Shown: positions 11,348 to 31,722, counted from the stretch's first letter. The stretch is 64,000 nucleotides of DNA from Candidatus Nanohalobium sp. (GCA_042217555.1 JBDGSL010000002.1:79343-143342), one strand, 5' to 3'. Made by a program: numbers and translations. Notes: a model not told the origin generated them from the sequence alone.

Positions 11348-12103
11348 ATGGAGCTACCAAACCAGTTCGACGAGAGGATAAGGCCAGACATCATCAAGAG
11401 AGCCAACCTTTCAATCAAGAGCAAGAAAAGACAGGACTACGGGTCAGACCCGGAAGCAGGACTGCGACACGTAGTATACTGGAAAAAACAGCAAAACGCA
11501 TACAGAGGGCAGAAAGGAAAGGGAATGTCTCGTACTCCTCGAAAGATCCGTGTCAGAAGAGGAAGTCAGATCTATGGAGACGGAGCAGAAGCACCGAACA
11601 CGATCGGTGGCAGAACCGCCCATCCTCCAAAAGCAGAGAAAAACTTTGAAGAAGAGATCAACGACAAGGAAAGAAGAAAGGCAATCAGGTCAGCAATCGC
11701 AGCAACAGCAGACCGGGAACTTGTCTCAGAGAAACATGAGTATGAAGGAGAAGTCCCGATTATCGAGGAAGGAATCTCAGGGATTGAAAAGACACAGGAA
11801 CTCAAGGAGAAGCTCGAAGACCTTGGACTTGAAGACGAACTTGACAGAGTGTCCGAGAAGAAAGTTAGAGGAGGTAAAGGAGCCAATCGTGGAAGAAAGT
11901 ACGTTAGAAAGGTTGGCCCGCTTGTAGTAACAGCGGAAGACGAAGGAATCTCAGATGCGGCAAGCAACCTGGCAGGTGTAGACCACTCCCAGGTAGATCA
12001 GCTGAACGCCGAAAAACTTGCTCCAGGAGCAGAACCAGGAAGACTGGTTGTATGGAGCAAAAAAGCAGTAGAGAAACTTGAAGAAGACGGTATGTACCAA
12101 TGA
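11348..12103 (+). CDS. rpl4: 50S ribosomal protein L4
   Basis: IRPDII, LAPGAEPGRL; operon order. Confidence 0.97.
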   Translation: MELPNQFDERIRPDIIKRANLSIKSKKRQDYGSDPEAGLRHVVYWKKQQNAYRGQKGKGMSRTPRKIRVRRGSQIYGDGAEAPNTIGGRTAHPPKAEKNFEEEINDKERRKAIRSAIAATADRELVSEKHEYEGEVPIIEEGISGIEKTQELKEKLEDLGLEDELDRVSEKKVRGGKGANRGRKYVRKVGPLVVTAEDEGISDAASNLAGVDHSQVDQLNAEKLAPGAEPGRLVVWSKKAVEKLEEDGMYQ

Positions 12104-12159
12104 AAACGAAAACACAAGGTTTTCTAAGATTCAGCAACACGCGAGGTGTAACTGAATAA
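12100..12159 (+). CDS. Bridging mini-ORF (19 aa, MKTKTQGFLRFSNTRGVTE)
   Basis: ATGA overlap with rpl4 stop; TAATG overlap with rpl23 start. Confidence 0.6.
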   Translation: MKTKTQGFLRFSNTRGVTE

Positions 12160-12428
12160 TGGAAGTTGACAGAGCATGGGAAGTTATCGAAAATCCACAC
12201 ATGACAGAACAGGCGATGGACATGATCGACGAAGAAAACAAACTCGTCCTCATGGTGGATCTGGAAGCAGACAAAGGCCAGGTAGAGGACGCAGTAGAGA
12301 CTCTGTTCGATGTGGATGTTGAGAAGGTCAATACTAACATCACGTCTTCCGCAAAGAAAAAAGCATACGTAAGACTAAGTCCAAGTGACAGCGCGATGGA
12401 CGTCGCGACTGAGCTTGGCATGATGTGA
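12159..12428 (+). CDS. rpl23: 50S ribosomal protein L23
   Basis: ENKLVLMV...KVNT...KKAYVRL. Confidence 0.97.
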   Translation: MEVDRAWEVIENPHMTEQAMDMIDEENKLVLMVDLEADKGQVEDAVETLFDVDVEKVNTNITSSAKKKAYVRLSPSDSAMDVATELGMM

Positions 12429-12438
12429 GGTAGGTAAT

Positions 12439-12492
12439 ATGACTAAAATCGAAGATTTTATGGGTTACCAGAAACTCGGTGAGTTTCGATAA
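12439..12492 (+). CDS. Bridging mini-ORF (17 aa, MTKIEDFMGYQKLGEFR)
   Basis: Own SD (GAGGT); TAATG overlap with rpl2 start. Confidence 0.6.
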   Translation: MTKIEDFMGYQKLGEFR

Positions 12493-13193
12493 TGGGATCG
12501 CCACTAAAACAGCAGAGAAGAGGAAAGGGAAGTCCAAACTTCCAGGCCAATAAGAAAGGCAAGGGAGTAACGGATCACAAAAACGCAGAAGTAACGGGAA
12601 CAGTAGTAGACCTGGTCCACGACCCGGCCAGGACAGCACCGGTAGCAAAAGTAGAGTTCGAAGACGGAGAAGTCAGAAACATTCTTGCACCGGAAGGCCT
12701 ACAGACAGGAGACGAAATTCAGGTCGGAGTATCAGCACCTGTAGAACCCGGAAACGTACTTCCACTAGGAGAAATCCCGGAAGGAGTACCAATCAACAAC
12801 ATCGAACTACAGCCAAACGACGGAGGAAAAATGGTTAAGGCATCAGGAACATACGCATTCGTCGTAACACAGGAGCAGGACGGAGTAAGAATCAAGCTTC
12901 CAAGCGGTGACTTCAAGAAACTCGATACTGAATGCAGAGCAACAGTTGGAAAGGTTGCAGCCGGCGGAAGAAAAGACAAGCCGCTTGTCAAGGCCGGAAA
13001 CGCATCCAAGGCTGCAAAGGCTCGTGGAAAACAGTACCCAACTGTCTCCGCAGTAGCCATGAACGCAGTCGACCACCCATTCGGTGGATCAGCAAAACCA
13101 GGACAGCCAAAGACAGTTTCCAAGCACGCTTCACCAGGAAGCAAGGTTGGAAACATCGGAGCCAAACGCTCCGGAAAGAAGAACAACGACTAG
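12492..13193 (+). CDS. rpl2: 50S ribosomal protein L2
   Basis: HDPARTAP, AMNAVDHPFGG. Confidence 0.98.
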   Translation: MGSPLKQQRRGKGSPNFQANKKGKGVTDHKNAEVTGTVVDLVHDPARTAPVAKVEFEDGEVRNILAPEGLQTGDEIQVGVSAPVEPGNVLPLGEIPEGVPINNIELQPNDGGKMVKASGTYAFVVTQEQDGVRIKLPSGDFKKLDTECRATVGKVAAGGRKDKPLVKAGNASKAAKARGKQYPTVSAVAMNAVDHPFGGSAKPGQPKTVSKHASPGSKVGNIGAKRSGKKNND

Positions 13194-13203
13194 GTGAACC
13201 CGC

Positions 13204-13263
13204 ATGACTAAAATCAAAGATTTTATGGCATTGCAGAAAACCACTGAGGTGGTTTTCGAATGA
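13204..13263 (+). CDS. Bridging mini-ORF (19 aa, MTKIKDFMALQKTTEVVFE)
   Basis: SD AGGTGA; ATGA overlap with rps19 start. Confidence 0.6.
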   Translation: MTKIKDFMALQKTTEVVFE

Positions 13264-13637
13264 CAGAAGAATTCACTTACAGAGGAAAAACACTCGAAGA
13301 ACTCCAGGACATGAGCCACGACGAACTAGCACCGCTTATGGATGCCCGGGCTCGCAGAAAACTGGAGAGAGGTCTTCGAGAAAACGAGGAAAAACTACTG
13401 GAAAAACTGGAGGACAAGGACCGTGTCCAGACACATCTCAGAGGAATGATCGTCCTTCCAGAAATGGTAGGAAAGACTATCGAGATCTACAACGGGCAAG
13501 GATTCGAAGAGGTTGATATTGAAGAAGAGATGATTGGCCACTACCTAGGAGAGTTCGCAAAAACCAGGAAAGAAGTATCACACAGCGCACCAGGACTCGG
13601 TGCTACAAGATCTTCAAAGCACGTACCGCTTAAGTGA
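13260..13637 (+). CDS. rps19: 30S ribosomal protein S19
   Basis: FTYRGK, MIGHYLGEFA. Confidence 0.98.
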   Translation: MTEEFTYRGKTLEELQDMSHDELAPLMDARARRKLERGLRENEEKLLEKLEDKDRVQTHLRGMIVLPEMVGKTIEIYNGQGFEEVDIEEEMIGHYLGEFAKTRKEVSHSAPGLGATRSSKHVPLK

Positions 13638-13642
13638 TTCAA

Positions 13643-13750
13643 ATGCGAAAATCAGAGATTCGAAAATTCGGAGAATTTTCTCCAAGAAATTCCTCACGGA
13701 ATTTCGTTTTCAGCCTTCCCAGAAACTCACAAGGTGAGTTTCGGCAATGA
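13643..13750 (+). CDS. Bridging mini-ORF (35 aa)
   Basis: Stop-free frame across the spacer; ATGA overlap with rpl22 start. Confidence 0.55.
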   Translation: MRKSEIRKFGEFSPRNSSRNFVFSLPRNSQGEFRQ

Positions 13751-14169
13751 ACAAGATCGAAACAGAACCACATCAGGCAAGAGCACTCGGCAAGAACATG
13801 CCGATCTCCTGGAAAGACGCAACAGAAATCGGCCGCTTCATCAAGGGAGACACGGTCGAAAAAGCAGAGAGAAAACTGGAAAAGGTAACGGAAGAAGAAC
13901 TCGCCGTACCGTACACAAAGTTCGACAGCGACGCAGGCCACCGAAGCGGAGACGGAGACTCAGGAAAATATCCTGTCAAAGCAGCAGAACACATGCTTGA
14001 AGTCGTACAGGAAGCAGCAAGCAACGCAGAACACCAGGGACTTAACCCGGGATCACTGCATGTAGAAAACGTCATCACAAACAAAGGAAACGAGTACGCA
14101 ACCCCTGGACGGTTTAGGGGAGAGAAAACCAAGGCAGCACATGTCAACGTAATCGTAGGTGAAAAGTAA
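13747..14169 (+). CDS. rpl22: 50S ribosomal protein L22
   Basis: ISWKDATEI, GKYPVKAA, NAEHQGL. Confidence 0.96.
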   Translation: MNKIETEPHQARALGKNMPISWKDATEIGRFIKGDTVEKAERKLEKVTEEELAVPYTKFDSDAGHRSGDGDSGKYPVKAAEHMLEVVQEAASNAEHQGLNPGSLHVENVITNKGNEYATPGRFRGEKTKAAHVNVIVGEK

Positions 14170-14273
14170 TGAATCGAAAACGAAAATTCAGTGAATTTTC
14201 TCAGAGAAAATCCTCAGGGATTTTCGGATCAGAGATTTTCTCAGTGATTTACACGCAAGGTGAAAATCAATAA
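14169..14273 (+). CDS. Bridging mini-ORF (34 aa)
   Basis: TAATG overlaps at both ends. Confidence 0.6.
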   Translation: MNRKRKFSEFSQRKSSGIFGSEIFSVIYTQGENQ

Positions 14274-15427
14274 TGCAAGAGAAACAGTTTATTGAGAAGG
14301 GAGCAAGGAAGGTAAGGCTTGATGAGTTCTTCTCGGATGAGCTTGCAGGAGCAGGTTATTCCAACTGTGAAATTGAGAGGACTCCTACAAGTACCAAAAT
14401 CGTAGTACATGCACAGAAACCAGGACTGGTTATAGGACGTGGTGGAAGCAGGATTCAGGAACTGACTGAAGATCTTGAAAGCGAGTTCGATTTCGAGAAC
14501 CCGCAGATCGAGGTCAGCGAGATCGATGAACCGGATGCAGACGCAAAGGTCGTGGCGAAGAGTATTGCAGACTGGCTTGAGAAAGGAGGCCACGCCAAAC
14601 GTGTAGGATACACATACGTCCGCAGGATGAAAGAAGCAGGTGTTATCGGAGCAGAGATAGAGATTACAGGAAAACTCTCCGGTAACAGAGGAAGAACAGA
14701 GAAGTTCTCCTTCGGATACGTCAAGAGATGTGGAGACACCTCAAAGAAAAACGTTCAGAAAGGATACGAGCTAGCCCGTACCAAACCAGGTGCTATCGGT
14801 GTCAAAGTAAGGATCATGAAGGACATGCCAGGTTTCCTTCACAGAGACGTCGATGTAAGCGGTGAAGTCCTCCATGAAGTCCAGGAAACTGAGGAAGCAA
14901 GAGATAAATCCACGAGGATTGAGGAAGTCGTCAGAGAAGCAGAGAATATGACTTCGGCAGAGCTTGAAAGAGCTATCGAGGAGAAGACAGAGGAAGTCAA
15001 GACAGACGACATCTCCAAGGAGGAAATCAGGGAAGCCTTCGACTCCGCTGACGCAGTAGAGAAACTGGAGGAAGAAGCTGAAGAAGTCGAAGAAGAAGCA
15101 GAGGAAATCATCGAGGAAGAAACAGGTGAAGAACAGGAAGAAGACGTTGAAGCAACTGAAAAGGAAGCTGAAGAAGTCAAAGAAGAGGCAGAGAAAGTTG
15201 CTGAAGAGACAGAGGATGAAGACGTAGAAGAAAAGGCTGAAGAAGTTGAGGAGGAAATGGAAGAAGTAGAAAAAGACCTTGAGGAAATCGTCTCAGGTAC
15301 GATAAGCGATGCCAAAGAGATGATCAACGAACTGGAGAATCCTGACTTCACAGCCCTGCTCGAGGCAGAGAAAGAGAACAAGGACCGTAAAACCTTCAAG
15401 GACTGGCTTGAAACCCGGAAGGATTAA
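14273..15427 (+). CDS. rps3: 30S ribosomal protein S3 with long acidic C-terminal extension
   Basis: KH motif PGLVIGRGG, GAIGVKVRI. Confidence 0.97.
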   Translation: MQEKQFIEKGARKVRLDEFFSDELAGAGYSNCEIERTPTSTKIVVHAQKPGLVIGRGGSRIQELTEDLESEFDFENPQIEVSEIDEPDADAKVVAKSIADWLEKGGHAKRVGYTYVRRMKEAGVIGAEIEITGKLSGNRGRTEKFSFGYVKRCGDTSKKNVQKGYELARTKPGAIGVKVRIMKDMPGFLHRDVDVSGEVLHEVQETEEARDKSTRIEEVVREAENMTSAELERAIEEKTEEVKTDDISKEEIREAFDSADAVEKLEEEAEEVEEEAEEIIEEETGEEQEEDVEATEKEAEEVKEEAEKVAEETEDEDVEEKAEEVEEEMEEVEKDLEEIVSGTISDAKEMINELENPDFTALLEAEKENKDRKTFKDWLETRKD

Positions 15428-15452
15428 AAGAGCTGAGAGGTGAAACCAAACC

Positions 15453-15641
15453 GTGAAAGCAGAAGAACTAAGAGAGAAGAGCGTATCCGAACTGAAGGAA
15501 GAACTTGGAAACCTTCAGAAAGAACTCGTACAGCAGAGAGGACAGATCGAGGCCGGAGGATTCGCTGACAGCCCGGGAGAGATCAAAGAGATGAAGAAAA
15601 CCATTGCAAGAATCAAAACAGTTCTCAACGAACGCAACTAG
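15453..15641 (+). CDS. rpl29: 50S ribosomal protein L29
   Basis: KAEELRE...KKTIARIKT; GTG start. Confidence 0.95.
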   Translation: MKAEELREKSVSELKEELGNLQKELVQQRGQIEAGGFADSPGEIKEMKKTIARIKTVLNERN

Positions 15642-15647
15642 ATACTA

Positions 15648-15755
15648 ATGAACGAAATTCACAGAATTTCTGGAATCAAAGGCCTTTCAGGCCTTCTGCA
15701 ACCTAGAAACCTGAAAGGTTTCGGAACTGCAGAAAATCGGGAGGCCGATTTTTGA
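15648..15755 (+). CDS. Bridging mini-ORF (35 aa)
   Basis: Stop TGA directly abuts the sui1 ATG. Confidence 0.5.
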   Translation: MNEIHRISGIKGLSGLLQPRNLKGFGTAENREADF

Positions 15756-16061
15756 ATGTCAGAGACCTGTCCAAAGTGCGGAATGCCTGAAGATCTTTGC
15801 GTCTGCGACAGCATCGCACGTGAAGATCAACAGATTACAGTAAAACTCGACTCAAGAAGCTACAATAAAGAGATGACAGTAGTTGAAGGCCTTGAAGAAG
15901 GATCAGAAATAGACGAACTGGCCTCGACACTGAAATCCCAACTTGCCTGCGGAGGAACAGCCAAGGAAGGCCACATAGAACTTCAGGGCGACCACAGAAG
16001 AAGAATCGTCGACATACTGGAAGACGAAGGCTTCTCACGAGAAAACATCGAAGTCAAATAA
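15756..16061 (+). CDS. sui1: Translation initiation factor SUI1 (aIF1)
   Basis: CPKCG..DLCVC, LACGGT, IELQGDH. Confidence 0.97.
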   Translation: MSETCPKCGMPEDLCVCDSIAREDQQITVKLDSRSYNKEMTVVEGLEEGSEIDELASTLKSQLACGGTAKEGHIELQGDHRRRIVDILEDEGFSRENIEVK

Positions 16062-16254
16062 ATCTTCGACACATTTTTACTTCTCCATTTTCTCCGTATT
16101 GAGTCTCAGTAGCATGACTTACTGATTGGGGGCAGCGATTTTTAGCTTTTCTAAAATTGGAATATAAGGTTTGAGGACAGGCTTGAGGGAATATTTGATT
16201 ATGTTGAGGTAGTAGATGAAGATAACTTCCTTGTTGTCAGGGCTGTGAAGTAGT

Positions 16255-16578
16255 TTACCTGTTTCTCTCGTGTTTTCTGGCAAACTCTTGCCAGTTGTCT
16301 ACAATTTTCTGGTATGCCGACCAGTAGTCCAGATGCTCTAGAGGAACTTTGTCGTCCTTGAAGGGGTGATCCTGGAACTTTAGGTCGATGTGTACAAATC
16401 CGTGTGCTGTGTCTAAAGTCACTACTTCCTCGTTTTCCTCTGTCTCAGGATTCCTGCAGACAAGAGTTATGCAGAAGTCTTCTTTTTCTTCAACGTCTTC
16501 TAGTTTATAGTCTGGCCTGTAGACGACCTCATATGCTTTGCCTTTAAACTGTCCCAGAGATAAGGAGTCGCTGGTCAT
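16255..16578 (-). CDS. Putative TumE/DUF7718-like toxin (start uncertain)
   Basis: DTAHGFVHID motif; divergent from an HVO_A0114-type HTH gene. Confidence 0.55.
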   Translation of the reverse strand: MTSDSLSLGQFKGKAYEVVYRPDYKLEDVEEKEDFCITLVCRNPETEENEEVVTLDTAHGFVHIDLKFQDHPFKDDKVPLEHLDYWSAYQKIVDNWQEFARKHERNR

Positions 16579-16689
16579 TGCCGATTTTCCCTCTAAATGT
16601 TGTTTGTAATACATCATTGATAAAGTGTTGAGGTCAGACATCATCACTTATTTAAGCTTTCAGCAACCACATTCCATATAGTGGCGGAA

Positions 16690-17061
16690 ATGGAGACTAC
16701 TACTGCAGAATCTGAAATAGATGTGGAAAAAGAGGGGTCGAAATCCTATGTTGGTGAGGACACGCTCGAATTTGTCAAAGAAGTTATTGAGAACAACAAA
16801 GACGTAAGTACTCACGTCATACCTGCTGAACTTGCCAGGAAGATAATGACGGAGAAAAGAATAGAGATTATAGAAACTATCAGAGAAGAGGAAATAGAAT
16901 CCAAAAGAGATCTGGCCAGAAAAGTAGACAGAGACATCAGTGTAGTCTCTAAAGACCTCAAAGTACTCTGGAAATACGGCATCGTCGAGTACAGGGAAGA
17001 AGACAATAACCGGAAGATACCGGAGATCACAGCCGAAAAAATAATAATAGAGCCTCTGTAA
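16690..17061 (+). CDS. HVO_A0114-like HTH DNA-binding protein
   Basis: TEKRIEII...SKRDLARKVDRDISVVSKDLKVL. Confidence 0.75.
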   Translation: METTTAESEIDVEKEGSKSYVGEDTLEFVKEVIENNKDVSTHVIPAELARKIMTEKRIEIIETIREEEIESKRDLARKVDRDISVVSKDLKVLWKYGIVEYREEDNNRKIPEITAEKIIIEPL

Positions 17062-17070
17062 AAACAATGT

Positions 17071-17593
17071 ATGCCGGGCGCAGTATTTCTAGAAGGCGAC
17101 AAAGTCAACCTCAGAACAGTTGAGGAAGAGGATCTGGAATTTATCAGAGATGCCTATAACCATCCTGAGGTTTGGCCTTGGCTAACTCATCAAGGTCCTC
17201 AAAACTTGGAGCAGGAGCGAGAATTCTTCGAAAACGTTATCTGCAGTGATGATCAGATCAACCTGGCGATTTCCGACGAAGAGACTATAACGGGTTTGAT
17301 ATCTCTCGTTCCGAAAGATGAGGACTGTAGCAGAGATAGGTATCTGGATTCATCCTGACTACCACGGAAACGGGTTTGGCACAGAAGCATCTGAACTCTT
17401 GGTAAAGTACGCCTTTGACCACAGGAACTACCACAAAATCGTGGCCCGTGCAATTGAGTCAAACACAGGATCTCAGAAAATCTGGGAGAAACTGGGGTTC
17501 CAGAAAGAAGGAGAACAAAGAGAGGAAATGTACAGAGACGGCAAACACAGAGACGTCTACTACTACGGCCTCATAGAACACGAGAGAAATTAA
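17071..17593 (+). CDS. RimJ/RimL GNAT acetyltransferase, frameshifted near 17320
   Basis: Two ORFs form one protein: VNLRTVEEEDL / EIGIWIHPDYHGNGFGTE...N..SQKIWEKLGF. Confidence 0.85.
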
Positions 17594-18193
17594 ATGAGAA
17601 ACAAAGTGAAGAAAGGCTATGAAGAAGGAGATTATGAATCTGATTACAGGGAAGGCAGGGACGTAAGGCCTGAAGAAAAAGATTTTTTCGACTCCCTTTC
17701 AGACCTGACAGGAGGAGATAAACTACTGGATTTAGGCTGTGGGACTGGAGTTCCTTTCGACAGGTATCTCTCAGAAAAGGGTTGGAAAGTTACAGGCTTT
17801 GATATCGCTGAAACTCACGTGGAAAAAGCCAGGGAAAACGTACCTTCTGGAGAGTTTAGACAGGGAGACTTCTTTCAACTGGACTTTGAAGAAGGCAGCT
17901 TTGACGCTGTAGTCAGCTTCTACGCTATATTCCACATTCCCAGGAAACAGCATTCTAAACTGCTTGATAAGATAAGCAGATGGGTGAAACAAGACGGTGC
18001 TATTTTGATTACCATGGGAGCAGAAAAAATGGATATGATGGAAGGAGACATAGGAGGAGAGAAAATGCTGTGGAGCTCATACTCAGCAGAAAAGAACAAA
18101 GAAATAGTCAAAGAAGCAGGCTTCAACATAGTTAGCTCATATGAGGAAGACTGGAGAGAAGAAACACACCTTTGGATCCTAGCAAAACCATGA
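17594..18193 (+). CDS. Class I SAM-dependent methyltransferase
   Basis: LLDLGCGTG, FDAVVSFYAIFH. Confidence 0.92.
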   Translation: MRNKVKKGYEEGDYESDYREGRDVRPEEKDFFDSLSDLTGGDKLLDLGCGTGVPFDRYLSEKGWKVTGFDIAETHVEKARENVPSGEFRQGDFFQLDFEEGSFDAVVSFYAIFHIPRKQHSKLLDKISRWVKQDGAILITMGAEKMDMMEGDIGGEKMLWSSYSAEKNKEIVKEAGFNIVSSYEEDWREETHLWILAKP

Positions 18194-18227
18194 TAAAAAC
18201 AAAATAATTCTCACATCATTATACTAC

Positions 18228-18506
18228 ATGCCACGAACACCTGAAAACCTGCCAAGACACGAACTGATCGGATTGGAAGCAGAAGTAGAGAAGCATCCTG
18301 ATTCCAACAAAGAAGGTATCTCGGGAGAAGTACTGGATGAAACCCGTGACATGCTGAGGATAGGCGATAAATGGGTGGAGAAAAAAGGCACTACTTTCCT
18401 GTTTGAACTGGGTGAGAAGAAGGTTCGTATCGAAGGCGATATCATCGATAAAAGGCCGGAGGACAGGTTGAAAATGAAGATGCCTGGTAAATGGGAAAGT
18501 GTCTAG
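18228..18506 (+). CDS. rnp1: Ribonuclease P protein component 1 (Rpp29)
   Basis: HELIGL, GEVLDET, RPEDR; conserved position before rps17. Confidence 0.95.
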   Translation: MPRTPENLPRHELIGLEAEVEKHPDSNKEGISGEVLDETRDMLRIGDKWVEKKGTTFLFELGEKKVRIEGDIIDKRPEDRLKMKMPGKWESV

Positions 18507-18551
18507 TCCCTGTCATTACTGATTTAATATTCGGCGAACAAGATTTTTACC

Positions 18552-18827
18552 GTGGCAGAGTCTGAAATTGTCTCGTCTGAGGATACTCTTGGCGGTGAGC
18601 CACGGATTGAAGGCGCTAGAATCGGTGTTTCGCACATCGTCCAGTACTATGAGAGCGAGTGGAGTATCGAAAAGATTTCCCGGGAGCTGGACCTTGAACC
18701 TTTGGGGGTCGTGAAAGCTCTAGAATACTATTACAAGAATCTTCAGGAGATCCGAGGTATAATCAGGGATCGTAAAAGTCGTGGCATTTTGTTTGGAGAT
18801 GAAGAGGCGTTAGTGGAGAAAGCTTAG
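18552..18827 (+). CDS. DUF433 protein
   Basis: LGGEPRIEGARIGV...ALEYY. Confidence 0.85.
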   Translation: MAESEIVSSEDTLGGEPRIEGARIGVSHIVQYYESEWSIEKISRELDLEPLGVVKALEYYYKNLQEIRGIIRDRKSRGILFGDEEALVEKA

Positions 18828-19220
18828 ATGAAGTGATGTTTAGGGAGAGGTTGTGTAACTTGATTTTTCTCTGCAGCTGCTGAAAGATTTATCAGCAGGG
18901 CCGAATTATATTTGTTCGTGGAATTGATTGTAACTCCGCATGGAGAGGAAGATTTAGATTCGCTGGAGAAGACAGGAAGCCTGGGTAGGATAGCGAAAAA
19001 GATTAATGAGATAGAGGGGAAGTTGAGCAAGGTTTCGATCCTGAAAAAGTAGTTGAAAAGCGGACAGGAGGTACGTGGCATCCTATTCTACAGCAAACAG
19101 TAGGAGACTATAGGATATGGTTTATCGAGGGTGGAAAAACCAAGAAAGGTGATGAAGACAAACTATATTTGATCAGGGTATTGACCAAGCCAGAAGCATT
19201 GAAACTACAAGGTGTAGAAG

Positions 19221-19349
19221 TTAATCCAGATATTTATCTTTAATATCGCTCCAGTTCTTACCTTCGCCGCTGCCGACCGACTTCAAGGCCTCGATAGTTT
19301 TCTCTGCCTCTCTTCTCACATCTTCCGCCACCTTCACAGTTTCAGGCAT
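19221..19349 (-). CDS. Small antitoxin-like ORF or remnant (42 aa)
   Basis: MPETVKVAEDV...; SD AGGTGG upstream. Confidence 0.35.
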   Translation of the reverse strand: MPETVKVAEDVRREAEKTIEALKSVGSGEGKNWSDIKDKYLD

Positions 19350-19383
19350 TTCAATCCACCTATGTCCTATTTTGGTATAAAGA

Positions 19384-19614
19384 CTTAAACTTCTTACTGT
19401 CTTCCACCATCAGGGCTTGCACCCTTTTTAAGAGTTGTCTTCTTTTTTGTGTTTACGGCCTTTGGGTCGTGGATTTGGGATTCCTGCTGAAAGTCGCTTT
19501 CGAGCGAAACTGCAGATAGGGGTCCGGCTGAAAGTGGAAAACCTAGTTTTTCCTTGATGGTCGGGTTTCTATGCTTTTTTTCAGCAGGAGTGTTCACGAG
19601 GTGAAAAACGAATA
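19384..19614 (+). promoter_or_regulatory. Promoter and structured leader upstream of rps17
   Basis: TTAAA box at ~19385; 11-bp stem 19482-19492/19579-19589; internal hairpins. Confidence 0.6.
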
Positions 19615-19887
19615 ATGAGCCAAGAATACGAAGTGCGAGGCGGAACTTTCACAGGGACGGTTGTATCTACGAAGATGCAGAAGTCCGCTACGGTGAGATG
19701 GGAGCACACACAGGAAATTCCAAAATACGAGAGAAAAGAAAGAAGAAACACCAAGGTCACGGTTCACGTACCGGAAGACATTGACATAGAGGAAGGTGAC
19801 AGAGTTGAGATAGGGGAGACACGGCCCATCTCAAAGACTAAAAGCCATGTAGTGATTGAAAAAATTGAAAACGGTGGCTCTGAATGA
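19615..19887 (+). CDS. rps17: 30S ribosomal protein S17
   Basis: GTVVSTKM, ETRPISKTK. Confidence 0.98.
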   Translation: MSQEYEVRGGTFTGTVVSTKMQKSATVRWEHTQEIPKYERKERRNTKVTVHVPEDIDIEEGDRVEIGETRPISKTKSHVVIEKIENGGSE

Positions 19888-19994
19888 AGATTTCCGCAGG
19901 AAATACTTCTGGCCACAGATTCGGAGAATCTGTTAATAGAAGTTCTGAGCAGAAGAACTTCGGCAGAAATCACCTCAGAGGTGGTTTCGAATGA
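19884..19994 (+). CDS. Bridging mini-ORF (36 aa)
   Basis: ATGA overlaps at both ends. Confidence 0.6.
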   Translation: MKISAGNTSGHRFGESVNRSSEQKNFGRNHLRGGFE

Positions 19995-20392
19995 AACCTC
20001 TAGGATCGAACATAACACGCTCACTTGACCTGGGAGCAGAACTGACATGTGCAGATAACTCCGGAGCCAAAGAACTAAAGATAATAGGCGTTAAGTCCAG
20101 AAAGGGCAGAAGAAGCAGAAGAGAAAGCGCAGGAGTCGGAGATGTCGTAAAGGTAAAGATACTTAGAGGAGACGAAGAAGTAAGACACCAGGTATTCGAC
20201 GCAGTTATAGTGCGTCAGGCAAAGGAGTTCGAAAGACCTCAGGGCCTCAGCGTAAAGTTCGAAGATAACGCAGCAGTCCTGATCGAGGAAGAGACCGGAA
20301 TGCCGAAAGGAAACGTGACAAAAGGCCCGATCGCAAAGGAAGTAGTACAGAGATTCTCAGCGATCGGAAAAATCGCGTCAAAGGTGGTTTAA
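19991..20392 (+). CDS. rpl14: 50S ribosomal protein L14
   Basis: CADNSGAK, FEDNAAV. Confidence 0.98.
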   Translation: MKPLGSNITRSLDLGAELTCADNSGAKELKIIGVKSRKGRRSRRESAGVGDVVKVKILRGDEEVRHQVFDAVIVRQAKEFERPQGLSVKFEDNAAVLIEEETGMPKGNVTKGPIAKEVVQRFSAIGKIASKVV

Positions 20393-20445
20393 TGAATAAA
20401 ATCGCAGATGTTAAGACTAGCCGGAAACCGGAGGTTTTCAACTAA
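20392..20445 (+). CDS. Bridging mini-ORF (17 aa, MNKIADVKTSRKPEVFN)
   Basis: TAATG overlaps at both ends. Confidence 0.6.
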   Translation: MNKIADVKTSRKPEVFN

Positions 20446-21107
20446 TGGCAGATAAGACACAGAACTGGAGCAAGGAATGGAAGAAAAGCGAGAACCCTCA
20501 GAAACAGAGAAAATACAGGAAAAACGCTCCACAGCACGTAAAGGACAAAATGATATCAGCAAACCTCTCACACGGACTTAGAGACCAACTGGATACAAGA
20601 AACCTTCAGGTTAACCTTGGTGACAGGGTTGAAGTCATGAGAGGAGATTTCAAGGGAAGCAGCGGAATAGTAAGTGCCATAGACAGAAACAGACAGAAGA
20701 TATACATCGACGGCCTTGAAGTAGAGAGACAGGACGGGACGACAAGAGAAAGACCGTTCCAGCCTTCAAACCTTCAGATACAGGCACTTAACCTTGAGGA
20801 CATGGAAAGAATCGAGAAATACGAAGTAGAAGACGCAGAAGAGATCCAGATCGACGAGGAAGAAGTTGAAGAAGTGCTTGAAGAAGACGATGAGAACGAG
20901 ATGATGCAGCAGATGCAGGGAGGCGGCGCACAGCCAGACATGGATATAGATGAGGAAGACATGGAAGAAATCAAGGAGGCCGCAGAAGAAGCAAGCGAAG
21001 ATGAAGGTTCCGAAGACGAATCAGAGGAACCCTCAGAAGATGAAGAAGTTGAGGAACAGGACGAGACAGAAACCTCTGAAGAAGACCAAGAAGGTGAAAA
21101 AGAATGA
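20445..21107 (+). CDS. rpl24: 50S ribosomal protein L24 with acidic tail
   Basis: PQKQRKY, GDRVEVMRGDFKG, PSNL. Confidence 0.96.
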   Translation: MADKTQNWSKEWKKSENPQKQRKYRKNAPQHVKDKMISANLSHGLRDQLDTRNLQVNLGDRVEVMRGDFKGSSGIVSAIDRNRQKIYIDGLEVERQDGTTRERPFQPSNLQIQALNLEDMERIEKYEVEDAEEIQIDEEEVEEVLEEDDENEMMQQMQGGGAQPDMDIDEEDMEEIKEAAEEASEDEGSEDESEEPSEDEEVEEQDETETSEEDQEGEKE

Positions 21108-21763
21108 CACATCAGAAAAGACTTTCAGCACCCAAGCATTATCCCATCTCCAGGAAAGAGAACACTTACATCTCGACGGTTAAGGGAAGCAGAAGTATCG
21201 AAGACGCTATCCCGGCCAATGTTTTCCTGAGAGATGTAACAGGTTACGCAGAGACGGACAAAGAAGCCAAAAAAATAGTGAGAAACGGAGACCTCCTCAG
21301 GAACGGTGAAAGGATCAGGGATGTCAAGCAGGGAATTGGAGTCCTGGACGTAGTAGAGCTTCCAAAGGCAGAAGAAACTTTCAGGGCAATAAGAGATGGA
21401 AAAAACCTTAAATTCATCCCAACAGAGGATAAAAGAACGGCTGCCAAGATCACAGATAAAACTGTTGAAGACGATGAATTTATCTACCATCTTCACAACG
21501 GAGAGAACTTCAGGAGCACTACGGAATATGAAACAGGAAGCACCTTGCTTCTCAAGGAGGGAGAAGAGGAAGTCAAGCTTGAAGACGGAGCAGATGTTCT
21601 TGTTATCTCCGGTCAGCACGCAGGGGAGAAAGCAGAACTTGAAGAGATAAACAGGAGAGGGATGAATCCCGATACCGGAACGGTTTCGGAAGAAGGCACT
21701 GAGTTCGAGACAAAACTTGAAAACCTTGTAGCTCTTGGAGACCTCGAGGTGGTTTTTGAATGA
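21104..21763 (+). CDS. rps4e: 30S ribosomal protein S4e
   Basis: HQKRLSAP, LHNGEN, GQHAG. Confidence 0.96.
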   Translation: MTHQKRLSAPKHYPISRKENTYISTVKGSRSIEDAIPANVFLRDVTGYAETDKEAKKIVRNGDLLRNGERIRDVKQGIGVLDVVELPKAEETFRAIRDGKNLKFIPTEDKRTAAKITDKTVEDDEFIYHLHNGENFRSTTEYETGSTLLLKEGEEEVKLEDGADVLVISGQHAGEKAELEEINRRGMNPDTGTVSEEGTEFETKLENLVALGDLEVVFE

Positions 21764-22272
21764 CAGAGAACCCTATGAAGGAGATCAAGGTGGCAAAGGT
21801 AACAGTGAATATCAGTGAGGAAAACGTAGGAGATCAGGTTGAGGCAGCTTACGATCTGATTGAAAAAATTACAGGTAAAGAGCCTGTCTGGGTAGAGTCA
21901 AAGGAAGGAGCGAAGACTTTTGGAAACCGACAGGGCTTGAACATCGGTGCAATGGTAACACTTAGAGGAGAGGACGCAGTAGATTTCCTCGAAAAAGTTC
22001 GACCAGCTATCGAAGAACTTAACGCTTCAGCTTTCAGCGACGGAAACTTTGCCTTCGGAATCAGTGAATACATCGATGTTCCAGGAGTGGACTACGATGC
22101 AGACATCGGTATGAAAGGTTTCGAGGTGAACGTCGTACTGGAAAGACCTGGATACAGGGTGAAGAAACGGGATCATAAACCCTCCGAGATCGGAGGCAGT
22201 CATAAGGTCTCTAACGATGAAGCAATCGAGTTCGCGGAAAGCAAGCTTGGATTCGAGGTGAATAATCAATGA
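21760..22272 (+). CDS. rpl5: 50S ribosomal protein L5
   Basis: [27 protein letters not shown]. Confidence 0.97.
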
Positions 22273-22493
22273 GTTATGAGAAGGTTTTAGACCAGATCAA
22301 GCACAAGGAGGGTAAGAGAAAGAAGTTTGAGAAGAATAACTCTCCTAAGGAAAGAGACTACGGAAAATCCAAGAAAGAATGCAGAAGATGCGGTAGAACA
22401 GGTAGAGGAGTTATCAGCAAGTACGGACTTAACTACTGCCGTCAATGCTTCAGAGAAGTGGCCGAGGAGATCGGCTTCAAACAGCTTAAATAG
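22269..22493 (+). CDS. rps14: 30S ribosomal protein S14
   Basis: CRRCG...YCRQCFRE. Confidence 0.96.
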
Positions 22494-22505
22494 GTGAGCC
22501 GAAAG

Positions 22506-22568
22506 ATGACAAGAGAATACGGAAACAAGTTTTCTAATCTAGAAAACGCCGGAGGCGATTCCCAGTGA
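22506..22568 (+). CDS. Bridging mini-ORF (20 aa)
   Basis: SD AGGTGA; GTGA overlap with rps8 start. Confidence 0.6.
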   Translation: MTREYGNKFSNLENAGGDSQ

Positions 22569-22954
22569 AACATGATACACTTAGCGATGCACTGAGCGCG
22601 ATTAACAACGCGGCCAGGAACAACAAGGATTACGCAGTGGTCTCTCCAACCAGCAGCCTGCTGAAGAACGTACTGATCGAACTGCAGCAGAACGGTTACA
22701 TAGGAGTATTTGAACTCGTAGAGGACGGAAAGGGAGGTAAGTTCAAGATAGAGGTAACGGACGACATCAATGAATGCAGGCCTGTCAAACCTAACTTTTC
22801 AGTGCAGAACGACGAGTTCGACAAGTGGGCCAAGAGATACCTGCCTGCACAGGGATTCGGCGATCTATTGGTCACGACCTCACACGGAGTAATGACGCAT
22901 GAAGAAGCCCGTGAGGAAAACCTGGGAGGAAAACTGCTTGGATACGTCTACTAA
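22565..22954 (+). CDS. rps8: 30S ribosomal protein S8
   Basis: DTLSDALS, TTSHGVMTH, GGKLLGYVY. Confidence 0.97.
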   Translation: MKHDTLSDALSAINNAARNNKDYAVVSPTSSLLKNVLIELQQNGYIGVFELVEDGKGGKFKIEVTDDINECRPVKPNFSVQNDEFDKWAKRYLPAQGFGDLLVTTSHGVMTHEEAREENLGGKLLGYVY

Positions 22955-22966
22955 GAGGTAGAAAAA

Positions 22967-23497
22967 ATGTCAGAAGAAACAACAATCGAGATTCCGGAGG
23001 ACTTCGACGCAGAATACGAAGAAGGAGTCTTCACTCTTTCAAACGGCGAAGAAGTCAGTAAGAAGATGGAACACGCACTGGTAGACGTAGAGATCAACGG
23101 TCAGGAAGTAACTTTCAGCACTTCCAGCAGTAAGAAAGATGTTCAGAGCATCGTCCATACTTTCAAGAGCCATGTAGAAAACATGATTGAAGGACTGGAA
23201 GACGAGCATGTCTACCGGATGAAGGGTGTTTACGCACACTTCCCTATGACTATCAAACAGCAAGGTGGCCAGGTAGTGATCGAGAACTTCATGGGTGAAA
23301 GAAACCCTAGGAAGGTAGACATTATGGACGGAGTAACTGTAGAGGTAGATGGCGAGGACCTGACACTGAAGGGAGCGGACAAGGACGCCGTAAGCCAGAC
23401 AGCAGCAAGGATCGAACAGGAATGCAAGAAAGGAAACCGTGATCCAAGAACCTTCCAGGACGGAGTATACATCACACAGAAAGGTGATAGTCAATGA
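22967..23497 (+). CDS. rpl6: 50S ribosomal protein L6
   Basis: YAHFPM, NFMGE, DPRTFQDGVY. Confidence 0.97.
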   Translation: MSEETTIEIPEDFDAEYEEGVFTLSNGEEVSKKMEHALVDVEINGQEVTFSTSSSKKDVQSIVHTFKSHVENMIEGLEDEHVYRMKGVYAHFPMTIKQQGGQVVIENFMGERNPRKVDIMDGVTVEVDGEDLTLKGADKDAVSQTAARIEQECKKGNRDPRTFQDGVYITQKGDSQ

Positions 23498-23595
23498 GGC
23501 AGACCAAAGGTTTGCTTGATACAGAAAACAAAGACTCAACCGGTTTTTCCGGGAGAAGATTCAGAGAAGCTTCGAATCAGGTGATTTTCAAATGA
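23494..23595 (+). CDS. Bridging mini-ORF (33 aa)
   Basis: ATGA overlaps at both ends. Confidence 0.6.
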   Translation: MRQTKGLLDTENKDSTGFSGRRFREASNQVIFK

Positions 23596-23927
23596 GTTTT
23601 GAGAGACAGGACAAGCACAAGAACAACAAACTGAAAGATAAATCCTGGAGAAGCCCCGACGGAGGGCATTCCAAGGTAAGACTTGAGAAAAACGGAGCTG
23701 CACCCAAACCCAAGATAGGTTACAGGGCTCCCAGCGAGATAAGAGGAAGACATCCCTCAGGATACGAAGAAGTACTGGTACACAACACCGGCGACCTGGA
23801 AGAGATAGAGGAAGGAGAAGCAGCAAGAATAGCGTCCAAGGTCGGTGGAAGAAAAAGAGAACAGATAATAGAAAAAGCAGACGAAGAAGACATCAAAGTC
23901 CTCAACAGAGGTGAACAGTCAGAATGA
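23592..23927 (+). CDS. rpl32e: 50S ribosomal protein L32e
   Basis: FERQ..WRSP.G.HSK, HPSGY, VLN. Confidence 0.95.
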   Translation: MSFERQDKHKNNKLKDKSWRSPDGGHSKVRLEKNGAAPKPKIGYRAPSEIRGRHPSGYEEVLVHNTGDLEEIEEGEAARIASKVGGRKREQIIEKADEEDIKVLNRGEQSE

Positions 23928-23992
23928 TTGATTCTGACTTTGCAGAAGATTCTCTAAAGAATCTTCGAACCGAGGTGTTTTCGAATGACTGA
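23924..23992 (+). CDS. Bridging mini-ORF (22 aa)
   Basis: ATGA overlap upstream; 8-nt ATGACTGA overlap with rpl19e. Confidence 0.55.
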   Translation: MIDSDFAEDSLKNLRTEVFSND

Positions 23993-24428
23993 TCTAAAGT
24001 CACAGAAGAGAATGGCCGCAGAAGTAATGGACGTAGGAAAGGATCGTGTCTGGATCAACCCTGATGAACAGGAAAAAGTAGAAGAAGCAATCACCAGGAA
24101 AGATATCAGGAACCTTGTAGAAGGAGGTACCATCCAGAAAAAAGACGAGGAAGGAAACAGCAAAGGTAGAAGCAGAGAGAAAAAGAAACAGAAAAAGAAA
24201 GGACGGAGAAAAGGACAGGGAAGCCGGAAAGGAAAGAAATCGGCCAGAAAAGACGATAAACAGAAGTGGATGGAAAAAATCAGATCCATCAGGGAAAGAC
24301 TGAAAGAAATGAAGGAAAACGAGGAAATCACCTCTGAACAGTACAGAGAACTCTACGACATGAGCAAGGGAGGATTCTTCAGAGACACAAAACACCTAGA
24401 AAACCATGTAGAGAACAAACTGGAGTGA
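23985..24428 (+). CDS. rpl19e: 50S ribosomal protein L19e
   Basis: LKSQKRMAA, RVWINP, GSRKG. Confidence 0.97.
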   Translation: MTDLKSQKRMAAEVMDVGKDRVWINPDEQEKVEEAITRKDIRNLVEGGTIQKKDEEGNSKGRSREKKKQKKKGRRKGQGSRKGKKSARKDDKQKWMEKIRSIRERLKEMKENEEITSEQYRELYDMSKGGFFRDTKHLENHVENKLE

Positions 24429-24434
24429 ACAGAC

Positions 24435-24476
24435 ATGAAAATCAGAGACCTACAGAACACAGAAGGTGAACTTTGA
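24435..24476 (+). CDS. Bridging mini-ORF (13 aa, MKIRDLQNTEGEL)
   Basis: SD GGAGTGA; stop 1 nt before rpl18 ATG. Confidence 0.5.
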   Translation: MKIRDLQNTEGEL

Positions 24477-24477
24477 T

Positions 24478-24987
24478 ATGGCAGAAGACTCAAACACTAA
24501 AGTCCCGCACAGAAGACGAAGAGAACAGAAAACAGACTACCAGCAGAGAAGAAAACTGGTGAAGTCAGGAAAACCAAGAGCAGTAGTAAGACTGAGCAAC
24601 AAACACACGAGAACACACCTGGCACACTTCAACAGGGAAGGCGATGAGAACACAGCACAGACACTCAGCAAAGAACTGGAAAACTACGGCTGGGAACACA
24701 ACACAGGTAATCTTCCAGCAGCATACCTGACAGGTTTCCTGACCGGTATGAAAGCTGAAGAAGACGAAGCAGTACTTGATATAGGCCTTAGAGAAAAAAA
24801 GAATGGAGGAAGAGTATTTGCAGCAGTTAAAGGCATGAACGACGCAGGACTCAACGTTCCTGTAGGCGAAGAAGTAATCCCTGAAGAATCAAGGATCAAA
24901 GGAGAACACATTAAAGAAATGATCGACGAAGAAGTCCCGAAAAGCTTTGAAGAAGTCAAAGAAAACATTAAAGGTGATTTCGAATGA
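24478..24987 (+). CDS. rpl18: 50S ribosomal protein L18
   Basis: RRRREQKTDY, NLPAAYLTG; start at ATG 24478. Confidence 0.96.
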   Translation: MAEDSNTKVPHRRRREQKTDYQQRRKLVKSGKPRAVVRLSNKHTRTHLAHFNREGDENTAQTLSKELENYGWEHNTGNLPAAYLTGFLTGMKAEEDEAVLDIGLREKKNGGRVFAAVKGMNDAGLNVPVGEEVIPEESRIKGEHIKEMIDEEVPKSFEEVKENIKGDFE

Positions 24988-25088
24988 TCGAAAATCAGAG
25001 ATTTTCTGGACTCGAAACCGGAACGGTTTCTATGAGTACAGAATCCGTTGGATTCGAACATGCAGAAATTCTAGGTGATTTCGAATGA
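24984..25088 (+). CDS. Bridging mini-ORF (34 aa) flanked by a 16-bp direct repeat
   Basis: ATGA overlaps at both ends; AGGTGATTTCGAATGA at 24972-24987 and 25073-25088. Confidence 0.65.
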   Translation: MIENQRFSGLETGTVSMSTESVGFEHAEILGDFE

Positions 25089-25750
25089 GCGAACAGGAAA
25101 CAGAGGAGATTTGGAAGCCGAAGACAGAACTCGGTGAGATGGTAGCTAACGGACAGATAACAGGAATCCGTGAAGCACTGAACTCCGACAAGAGGATAAT
25201 GGAGCCGGAGATAGTTGATCAACTGGCAGATCTTCAGGAAGAAGTAGTACTGATCGGAGGAACACCTGGAAAGGGAGGGGGCAAGAGAAGAACAGTCTCC
25301 AAACGTACGGCTAGGATGCACAAGTCCGGAGCAAGATACAACAGTAAAGCGATGACAATACTGGGTAACAAGAACGGTATCGTCGGGATCGGCATGGGAG
25401 AATCAGATGACACCCGTGCAGCGATCGACGACGCCAACAGGAGAGCAAAACTCAACCTGATAGAAGTGCCGCTTGGAAACGGAAGCTGGGAGGACCAGGG
25501 AGAAAACAACACTTCCATCCCTCTCGCAGTAGAAGGAAAGTCCGGAAGCGTAACCGTAGAAGTCAAGCCAGCGCCGAGAGGAACAGGTTTAGCTGCCAGT
25601 GACGAGGTAAAGAAGATACTTGAACTGGCTGGCATCCGGAACGCCTGGGTGCAGGCACGTGGAACAACACGAACACGTGAAAACCTGATAAAGGCAACAT
25701 TCAACGCACTGAAAAAAATCAAACAGTACCAGAGAAGTGATGACAGATGA
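25085..25750 (+). CDS. rps5: 30S ribosomal protein S5
   Basis: WKPKTELG, PAPRGTGL. Confidence 0.97.
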   Translation: MSEQETEEIWKPKTELGEMVANGQITGIREALNSDKRIMEPEIVDQLADLQEEVVLIGGTPGKGGGKRRTVSKRTARMHKSGARYNSKAMTILGNKNGIVGIGMGESDDTRAAIDDANRRAKLNLIEVPLGNGSWEDQGENNTSIPLAVEGKSGSVTVEVKPAPRGTGLAASDEVKKILELAGIRNAWVQARGTTRTRENLIKATFNALKKIKQYQRSDDR

Positions 25751-26082
25751 CACTACTAGTAGCAGTCAAGGTCAGGGGCAGCATCGACGCCTCCGAATCA
25801 ATCAGCAGGACACTGCAGACACTGGGCCTGGAGAAGAAAAACCAGGCAAGAATCATGGAAGACAATGAGTCCAACAGAGGGATGCTGAGAAAGGCCAAGG
25901 ACTACATCGCCTACGGAGAAGTAGACCAGGAAACCGTAGAGCAGCTTGAAGCAGAGACAGGAGAAACAGTCACTCTATCACCTCCAAGTGGAGGATTCAA
26001 AAGCACGAAAAAACAGCGTCACCAGGGAGGAAGTCTCGGAAAAAGGGACGACATGGAAGAACTCCTTGGAAAGATGCTGTAA
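25747..26082 (+). CDS. rpl30: 50S ribosomal protein L30 (short form)
   Basis: VKVRG, YIAYGE, LSPPSGG. Confidence 0.94.
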   Translation: MTLLVAVKVRGSIDASESISRTLQTLGLEKKNQARIMEDNESNRGMLRKAKDYIAYGEVDQETVEQLEAETGETVTLSPPSGGFKSTKKQRHQGGSLGKRDDMEELLGKML

Positions 26083-26130
26083 CCGAAAATCGAGAGATTT
26101 TCTAAAAAATTCAACACACAGTGTTCAACA

Positions 26131-26184
26131 ATGCGAAATTCAAAGAATTTCTGTATTACCAGAAGCACAGAGGTGCTTCGATAA
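26131..26184 (+). CDS. Bridging mini-ORF (17 aa, MRNSKNFCITRSTEVLR)
   Basis: TAATG overlap with rpl15 start; starts 48 nt after the rpl30 stop. Confidence 0.45.
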   Translation: MRNSKNFCITRSTEVLR

Positions 26185-31669: not shown

Positions 31670-31722
31670 CTTTACTATACTTTTGCTGGGATTATAAGAG
31701 AAGCTCCAGTTCTGCGAGCTTC

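Follow-up and report, generated by a model that had tools for sequence, protein, structure and literature searches.

Hairpins at the start sites of a nanohaloarchaeal ribosomal protein operon as a possible end module of a palindromic insertion family

In the archaeal S10/spc ribosomal protein operon of Candidatus Nanohalobium sp., many genes are preceded by a hairpin that holds their Shine-Dalgarno (SD) sequence, which raises the question of what these hairpins do and how they came to stand there. The operon lies on the + strand of the window, a stretch of 64,000 nucleotides (GCA_042217555.1 JBDGSL010000002.1:79343-143342) from a genome of 1.31 Mb with a G+C content of 45.8%; its genes extend from L3 (10365) to SecY (26662), counted from the first letter of the window, and all of its gene names (25/25) were confirmed with Pfam. 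Fourteen operon junctions have spacers of 49-114 nt in this genome, here called cassettes, each with a short open reading frame (mini-ORF). A sequence-only reading had proposed that the SD sites are locked in hairpins inside these mini-ORFs, so that initiation is blocked unless a ribosome translating the mini-ORF melts the stem, and that this would enforce stoichiometric synthesis. With about even confidence, we favour another answer, in which the SD hairpins would be the 3'-terminal module of a Nanohaloarchaeota family of palindromic insertions, tolerated because translation is relayed through the mini-ORF, and not a device evolved for stoichiometry.

All seven hairpins named in that reading were located at the genes given for them, and its observation that the SD lies in a stem or loop before many genes holds, with 11 of the 14 whole spacers folding at z ≤ -2.1 against 200 dinucleotide shuffles (the exceptions, L14>L24, L6>L32e and S14>S8, are listed with their scores in Table 1). 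The typical last hairpin has a 5' arm made up of GAAA and 2-6 variable bases, a loop in which 3-5 bases include the first bases of the SD (GAG, AGG, GGAG) and a 3' arm of GTG(A) plus TTTC, followed by 2-5 bases and the start codon. The SD (GGTGA, GAGGTG, GGAGG) spans the loop and the 3' arm, the 5' arm is complementary to the new SD and its spacer, and the last elements of the cassette are the new SD, a TTTCGA-like spacer and the real gene's start codon. In the unit of about 50-60 nt, a linker joins a first hairpin (often GAAAATC-NNN-GATTTTC) to the SD hairpin, and longer spacers contain extra hairpins, giving cassettes of 45-115 nt overall with one to four hairpins on GAAA..UUUC feet. The anti-SD, GGATCACCTCC, was read at the 16S 3' ends of two relatives because the 16S of this genome is cut at a contig end; the sole 16S match in the genome, located outside the window at contig C37:27770-28594, spans positions 4-828 of the model and stops near the end of the retrieved stretch.

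The ribosomal protein junctions were compared with those of 20 relatives, giving 21 genomes in total, and spacers of at least 33 nt were taken as the cassette type. Relatives retrieved with the L14 protein bear the titles Candidatus Nanohaloarchaea or Nanosalina. A hairpin lies within the last 34 nt of 48 of the 52 such spacers, and 29 of these 48 have the canonical module, a hairpin ending 1-5 nt before the start. The cassette-type spacers occupy 14 of 21 junctions in this genome, 7/21 in G009, 5/14 in G007, 4/14 in G020 and 3/21 in G001, with 0-2 in each of the other 16 relatives; in the 20 relatives, most of these junctions are tight (-8 to +15 nt) and lack hairpins. The ATG of the mini-ORF stands exactly at the true start of same-genus relatives, with the native SD before it, as at L23>L2 (where it is the position of the L2 start in G001), L2>S19, S19>L22, L6>L32e, L19e>L18 and L18>S5. 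Set against G003 and G001, the L2>S19 spacer shows 56 inserted nucleotides that follow ATGAC and themselves end in ATGAC. At L18>S5, the native junction is present on both sides of the insert as a perfect direct repeat of 15 nt; G024 also has an insert at this junction, with a 15-nt repeat of its own that differs from that of G000. Overall, the flanking direct repeats range from ATG(A/AC) up to 15 nt; each hairpin forms a palindrome by itself, and element-wide terminal repeats were not observed.

Cassettes are also related across junctions. Those from different junctions and different genera are up to 87% identical (median 52%) between unrelated flanks (~52%); S4e>L5 in G020 and L32e>L19e in G007 share 87%, and L23>L2 here and L4>L23 in G009 share 82%. 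At the same junction, S19>L22, the cassettes of this genome and G009 share 89% identity, compared with 78% for the flanking genes. The 103-nt L22>S3 spacer corresponds to the cassette of G001 and G003 (52-55 nt) with a two-hairpin block of 48 nt nested in its first hairpin. The sporadic presence, the nesting and the identity across junctions fit insertion and copying rather than an ancient fixed design. Contigs of a second sample carry the cassettes unchanged, and contigs of co-occurring relatives skip the spacers 12101-12159, 13638-13748 and 24425-24477, having 14, 7 and 8 other letters instead. Judging from these comparisons, the cassettes are inserts placed directly behind ancestral start codons, and the old ATG now appears to serve as the start of the mini-ORF.

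The reading frame of the mini-ORF stays open through the hairpin. At all 14 window junctions the last hairpin lies with both arms inside the mini-ORF, as the sequence-only reading had stated, and every mini-ORF ends on the real start, through TAATG, ATGA or an adjacent stop; at 13 of the 14 it begins at or near the upstream stop. Among the hairpin-bearing spacers of the 21 genomes, 40 of 41 are bridged when GTG starts are counted too, and in these 40 the mini-ORF starts -7 to +17 nt from the upstream stop, while its own stop ends at -2 to +12 nt relative to the opening base of the real start codon, TAATG or ATGA being the usual arrangement. When ATG starts alone are counted, 45 of the 52 spacers have a bridging ORF, and in 37 of these 45 stops close both other frames. 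The encoded peptides (8-36 residues) are mostly unrelated, the conserved AAAATC..GATTTT motif being read in all three frames (8, 6 and 2 cases); in one subfamily, found at four junctions of three genomes, the peptide is MTKI[EK]DFM. Selection acts on the mini-ORF, though not as a peptide.

The hairpin stems co-vary across cassettes. The 29 canonical modules comprise 22 distinct stems, whose interiors differ yet always match (ACTC/GAGT, ACCAC/GTGGT, ATCACC/GGTGAT, GCAC/GTGC, ACC/GGT). Native pairs of 5' and 3' arms have a mean pairing energy of -8.97 kcal/mol, compared with -4.15 for chimeric pairs, and none of 2000 permutations reached the native sum. The first hairpin of the S17>L14 cassette shows a two-sided change relative to G020. 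G.U and A.C mismatches number 1 and 0 in the ribosomal protein cassettes and 5 and 4 in the co-directional spacers of the genome, too few to tell selection on RNA from selection on DNA. GGAG or GAGG is frequent in the loop.

Hairpins of this form are not restricted to the operon. The genome contains 664 perfect hairpins (stem of at least 7, loop of 3-6), compared with 390 in a first-order Markov control, and those with GAAA..TTTC feet number 146 against 8 in the control, which was not deduplicated. Of 108 unique footed hairpins, 86 are intergenic, while intergenic sequence makes up ~14% of the genome in our own gene map; outside the operon this map comes from a rough ORF caller with SD-guided choice of starts. 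Footed hairpins without an SD also occur inside cassettes and in other spacers. Ten footed hairpins are in tRNA introns, and a further eight are no more than 60 nt away from tRNA genes. The motif AAAATC-N3-4-GATTTT occurs 24 times in the genome, with a rough chance expectation below 1, and across 70 genomes of the phylum GAAAATC-N3-4-GATTTTC was found in 50 and a reversed-pattern control in none. Canonical pre-start modules outside the operon precede genes that we take, by eye, to encode V-ATPase A and D, Rrp41, S24e, L40e and L21e, and two others. L40e and L21e have no co-directional gene upstream in our map, and the mini-ORF there, which has an SD of its own, acts as a leader ORF.

When introns of up to 300 nt were permitted, ARAGORN called 42 tRNAs in the genome, of which 35 have introns (33-268 nt), although some calls at this permissive setting may be false. 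In the window it called none by default and four with introns allowed (31514-31670, 34724-34853, 35808-35978 and 52333-52482); the first, a tRNA-Ser, has a 66-nt intron holding a GAAAATC-ttt-GATTTTC hairpin. At 31715-31845 there is a second tRNA-like 3' piece (GGGTTCAAATC ... CCAGCCCCGGCG), whose T-arm region is interrupted by ~100 nt with two GAAA..TTTC hairpins. This piece may represent a non-canonical intron position or a tRNA remnant, and the GTG-started gene called there by the ORF caller is wrong.

On the reading that the SD hairpins end a tolerated palindromic insert, a ribosome bound for the old ATG, arriving by reinitiation after the upstream gene or via the SD of that ATG, would translate the mini-ORF instead. 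It would unwind the hairpins and terminate on top of the real start, where the same ribosome would reinitiate, aided by the momentarily single-stranded SD; where no ribosome passes, the hairpin would damp independent initiation at the new SD. Output would thus stay tied to the ancestral start, and the cassette would be nearly transparent to translation and hence tolerated at coupled junctions; a cassette that is tolerable but unnecessary fits its absence in relatives. Because the mini-ORF starts at the ancestral start with its own SD, the real gene would depend on the mini-ORF but need not depend on the upstream gene, and the retained ancestral SD and ATG would mean that the input present before insertion is kept and passed on.

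Published work bears on two of these steps. In Haloferax volcanii, according to the accessible part of the report, termination-reinitiation coupling is almost abolished at a gap of ~20 nt (PMC10666635), so that an insert of 50-110 nt would need a bridging ORF to keep coupling. Structure-masked downstream sites are described together with RNA-unfolding and reinitiation models in the accessible text of PMC12548453, according to which a new ribosome cannot load at an overlapping stop and start before the terminating one leaves. With the mini-ORF stop and the real start overlapping, no second ribosome could load while the first holds the melted site, which makes reinitiation by the same ribosome, rather than de novo entry, the likely route.

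How far is the SD masked? Predicted SD pairing probabilities are 0.2-0.83 at cassette sites and 0.48-0.56 in the genome background (488 SD-led genes, every context class); with a background this high the measure says little, and as it failed to separate the two groups it was set aside in favour of opening energies. Genes preceded by a cassette (n=14) have a mean opening cost of 5.3 kcal/mol at the SD and 10.2 for positions -18..+6, compared with 3.25 and 8.2 for other SD-led genes (n=467; Mann-Whitney, p 0.002 and p 0.006, respectively) and 4.1 and 6.9 for tight-junction genes of the same operon (n=7). Because genes outside the operon were called with the rough ORF caller, this background set is biased towards SD-bearing starts. 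A strict criterion for a compact hairpin is satisfied by 20 of the 488 SD-led genes genome-wide, indicating that an SD hairpin is no general property of start sites in this genome. The expected difference in accessibility between these SDs and those of other genes thus appears in opening energy and in hairpin compactness, but hardly in pairing probability. A defined hairpin overlaps the SD at 9 of the 14 junctions; at L24 the minimum-energy fold prefers a competing CCGG stem, in which the SD is paired too. In these predictions masking is real on average, strong at L22, L14, S19, L24, L15 and L23 and slight at the others. What stood of the claim that the SDs are locked is a mean opening cost raised by ~2 kcal/mol; by the same models, masking is only partial.

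Several points count against a relay through masked sites. SD pairing is weak or occurs in alternative folds at five of the 14 junctions (S8, L32e, L19e, L18 and S5), and the opening costs of single cassette sites (1.3-9.3 kcal/mol) overlap the background. Across stems, 0 to 5 core SD bases are in the stem, typically with 3 in the loop, which argues against a fixed register of masking. The complementarity of the 5' arm to the SD could stem from the palindromic origin of the hairpin instead of from selection for masking. At L30>L15 the mini-ORF begins 49 nt past the L30 stop and does not bridge the spacer fully. Energies were computed at 37 °C and standard salt, and the cytoplasm of a salt-lake organism differs; cassettes of the same family are, moreover, non-independent data points.

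The sharing of hairpins with tRNA introns points further, to a self-spreading family of nanohaloarchaeal hairpin modules that would settle behind start codons with a built-in translation relay, nearly invisible to operon expression, moved by one propagating mechanism and strongly expanded in this genome with no linked transposase. We put this forward tentatively, as less probable than the tolerated insert itself. No insertion machinery was found, a point against the tolerated insert: a link to IS200/IS605 elements was not supported, as Y1 transposase is found in 4 and TnpB over the cut-off in 14 of the 70 genomes that include 50 with the hairpin, and neither of these two enzyme families, the only ones searched for, was found in several hairpin-rich genomes, such as G007, G009, G051 and G067. 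An IS200/IS605-type element with Y1 transposase and TnpB is present outside the window (contig C11:15072-16822), with two GAAA..TTTC or GGAAATC-type hairpins ahead of it and a TGAAATC-N5-GATTTCA hairpin behind it. TnpB matches are most numerous in this genome among the 70, with six at E ≤ 0.001 and five over the cut-off.

Alternatively, the hairpin might have no role in translation and be a by-product or a requirement of the element, the downstream gene initiating at the SD exposed in the loop; the palindromes might then arise by inverted local copying, or the hairpins might be recognised as DNA or RNA by the propagating machinery. This would suit the internal hairpins that share the form without an SD, the genome-wide and mostly non-coding spread of the family, the footed hairpin found in most genomes of the phylum and never in the reversed control, the nesting of new blocks in older hairpins at L22>S3, and the GGAG or GAGG in the loop. 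We consider it unlikely, for it leaves unexplained both a bridging frame that stays open and ends exactly on the start and an SD complement that is present in the last hairpin only.

Somewhat less likely still is the view of the sequence-only reading, in which the hairpins evolved as a regulatory block on de novo initiation that enforces equal synthesis along the operon. The co-varying stems, the maintained mini-ORF frame and the raised opening cost agree with it, as do other cassettes in operons for complexes, judged by eye to be V-ATPase, exosome and Spt4>S24e. However, at the same junctions most relatives, which make the same ribosome, are tight and hairpin-free, showing the hairpins to be dispensable, and genomes differ in their count, from 0 to 14. 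The single genes L40e and L21e are preceded by cassettes of these types too, and the ancestral SD kept by the mini-ORF lets ribosomes enter independently of the upstream gene. Nor do the hairpins look like a dedicated SD-blocking device, since hairpins of the same form occur without an SD in cassettes, tRNA introns and other spacers. The stoichiometric purpose was thus not upheld.

It is improbable that the hairpins are REP-like elements for RNA stability, processing or protein binding, with the mini-ORFs translated only as a guard against transcription polarity. Their presence in polycistronic spacers, leaders, tRNA introns and tRNA flanks would be in line with this, and the conserved foot, beside a variable interior, suggests that it is the foot that is recognised; archaeal polarity on untranslated RNA via FttA is described in the accessible text of PMC12548453. 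Against it, no Rfam family reached its gathering score within the window, and relatives manage without hairpins at the same junctions. Two last accounts deserve almost no credence. Cassettes as bulge-helix-bulge introns, cut out by the tRNA splicing endonuclease to restore a tight junction, would explain the direct repeats at some of them and the shared hairpins of tRNA introns, but a bridging ORF is pointless in a spacer that is removed, and 3 of 45 cassettes have a strict 3-4-3 motif spanning the two boundaries, compared with 2.0 expected from shuffles. Mini-ORFs as genes for conserved micropeptides, with incidental hairpins, could appeal to the MTKI[EK]DFM subfamily and founder on the three reading frames of the conserved motif and the otherwise unrelated peptides.

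The unmasking of a ribosome-binding site (RBS) by an upstream ribosome is an established model (PMC12548453, accessible text), and that an upstream ribosome can open a masked SD is already known. In RNA-unfolding coupling, as at E. coli atpHA, phage MS2 coat-lysis and f1 genes VII-IX, the downstream RBS likewise lies in local structure that is opened by a ribosome in the upstream frame (PMC12548453, same part). Here, in contrast, the upstream frame is a non-conserved mini-ORF of 8-36 codons that would have been brought by insertion, the arrangement recurs at 14 junctions of one archaeal operon with partial masking, and the stop-start overlap makes reinitiation by the same ribosome likelier than new entry. 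The ATGA and TAATG overlaps, with an SD before the restart, are shared at both ends of the mini-ORF with termination-reinitiation coupling in Haloferax volcanii and E. coli, as far as the accessible part of PMC10666635 describes it. There a single direct overlap is involved, whereas here two coupled steps would follow in series via a relay ORF.

The cassettes also resemble dispersed repeats in some respects and differ from them in others. REP/BIME, Correia elements, miniature inverted-repeat transposable elements (MITEs) and Rickettsia palindromic elements are dispersed bacterial palindromes in transcribed operon spacers. Like REP- and MITE-type repeats, the cassettes are present or absent in close relatives and form clusters, nested copies and subfamilies; unlike them, they are archaeal, sit behind start codons, carry an ORF, an SD and a stop-start overlap, and have stems that vary with compensation rather than being near-identical copies, with no linked transposase. 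The left-end stem-loop of IS200 occludes the RBS of the transposase and so represses the element's own gene. A cassette similarly holds an SD in its end hairpin, but the gene that follows belongs to the host, and the element itself is without a gene. In plasmids R1 (tap-repA) and ColIb-P9 (repY-repZ), the main gene likewise requires translation of a short upstream ORF, which ends in the start region and opens the structure, under the control of antisense RNA; those are single regulatory sites, whereas here a cassette is dispersed and repeated. In the literature searched, which was limited in coverage, we found no description of dispersed hairpin cassettes in archaea that adjoin starts, have relay ORFs and share modules with tRNA introns. 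In the accessible text of PMC10266531, supplements aside, the terms palindromic, repeat, hairpin and intron refer to CRISPR, methylation motifs, protein repeats, other non-coding RNAs and tRNA intron counts.

Table 1. Cassettes and start-site hairpins of the S10/spc operon (window positions; mini-ORF and SD coordinates as given; opening, predicted cost of opening the SD in kcal/mol; z, fold score of the whole spacer)
Feature	Position	Strand	Mini-ORF	SD	Opening	z	Remarks
L4>L23 cassette, 55 nt	12104..12158	+	12100-12159, 19 codons			-4.39	
Nested hairpin before L23	12129..12157	+		GAGGTG 12143-12148			SD half loop, half inner stem
L23>L2 cassette, 63 nt	12429..12491	+	12439-12492, 17 codons			-2.56	
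SD hairpin before L2	12471..12487	+		12478-12482			GAAACTC-ggt-GAGTTTC
L2>S19 cassette, 66 nt	13194..13259	+	13204-13263			-2.53	
SD hairpin before S19	13236..13257	+		13246-13251	8.7		GAAAACCAC-tgag-GTGGTTTTC
S19>L22 cassette, 109 nt	13638..13746	+	13643-13750			-3.17	3-4 hairpins
SD hairpin before L22	13722..13742	+		13732-13737	8.8		GAAACTCAC-aag-GTGAGTTTC
L22>S3 cassette, 103 nt	14170..14272	+	14169-14273			-2.12	
Interrupted hairpin before S3	14245..14269	+		AGGTGA 14258-14263	3.8		
L29>SUI1 cassette, 114 nt	15642..15755	+	15648-15755			-4.74	4 hairpins
Hairpin before SUI1	15733..15752	+		GGAGG 15740-15744	3.6		AAAATCGG-gagg-CCGATTTT; SD nearly all loop
S17>L14 cassette, 103 nt	19888..19990	+	19884-19994			-4.39	4 hairpins
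SD hairpin before L14	19966..19988	+		19978-19983	9.3		GAAATCACCT-cag-AGGTGGTTTC; SD almost wholly stem
L14>L24 cassette, 52 nt	20393..20444	+	20392-20445			-1.77	
Hairpin before L24	20423..20439	+		GGAGGT 20430-20435	8.0		GGAAACC-gga-GGTTTTC
S14>S8 cassette, 71 nt	22494..22564	+	22506-22568		1.5	+0.33	Only a 3-bp stem at the SD (22548-22556)
L6>L32e cassette, 94 nt	23498..23591	+	23494-23595		1.3	-1.44	Weak 5-bp SD stem (23574-23587)
L32e>L19e cassette, 57 nt	23928..23984	+	23924-23992	23972-23977			SD pairing in alternative folds only
L19e>L18 cassette, 49 nt	24429..24477	+	24435-24476	24464-24469	5.2		Long-range stem 24441-24477 over the SD
L18>S5 cassette, 97 nt	24988..25084	+	24984-25088			-3.25	
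Hairpin before S5	25065..25082	+		AGGTGAT 25073-25079	2.6		GAAATT-ctaggt-GATTTC; SD mostly loop
L30>L15 cassette, 101 nt	26083..26183	+	26131-26184			-4.56	4 hairpins
SD hairpin before L15	26162..26179	+		26170-26175	6.9		GAAGCAC-agag-GTGCTTC

Several further features of the operon were recorded. At the tight S4e>L5 junction (21700-21762), the coding end of S4e can form a GAAAACC ... GGTTTTT stem over the SD of L5 (opening cost 7.1 kcal/mol), and the C-terminus of S4e, EVVFE, equals the end of the peptide of the L2>S19 mini-ORF. L29 (15453) and S8 (22565) apparently start with GTG, which is also the re-created start behind the cassette in several relatives. A 3.5-kb block between SUI1 and S17 (16062-19614) splits the operon and contains one minus-strand ORF and several small plus-strand ORFs, with RNase P subunit p29 at 18228-18506 (Pfam); in relatives the distance from SUI1 to S17 is ~0.75 to 7.4 kb. 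Two plus-strand ORFs, 17071-17358 (95 aa) and 17318-17593 (91 aa), overlap in different frames and may be one frameshifted gene. S3 (14273-15427, 384 aa) and L24 (20445-21107, 220 aa) have long, very acidic, Glu/Asp-rich C-terminal tails past their Pfam domains.

For annotation, the mini-ORFs should not be called as genes, the true starts lie behind the hairpins, and default tRNA finders miss tRNA genes in this genome, as the window illustrates. If the relay is true, the cassettes would offer a natural test set for archaeal reinitiation, with dozens of variants of one stop-on-start design that differ in the depth of the SD in the stem and in the length of the relay frame (8-36 codons), and with orthologous junctions that do and do not have the insert. 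It would also explain why spacers of 50-115 nt stand in the most highly expressed operon of a reduced, 1.3-Mb genome, and the family would represent an insertion element shaped by the need to preserve translational coupling.

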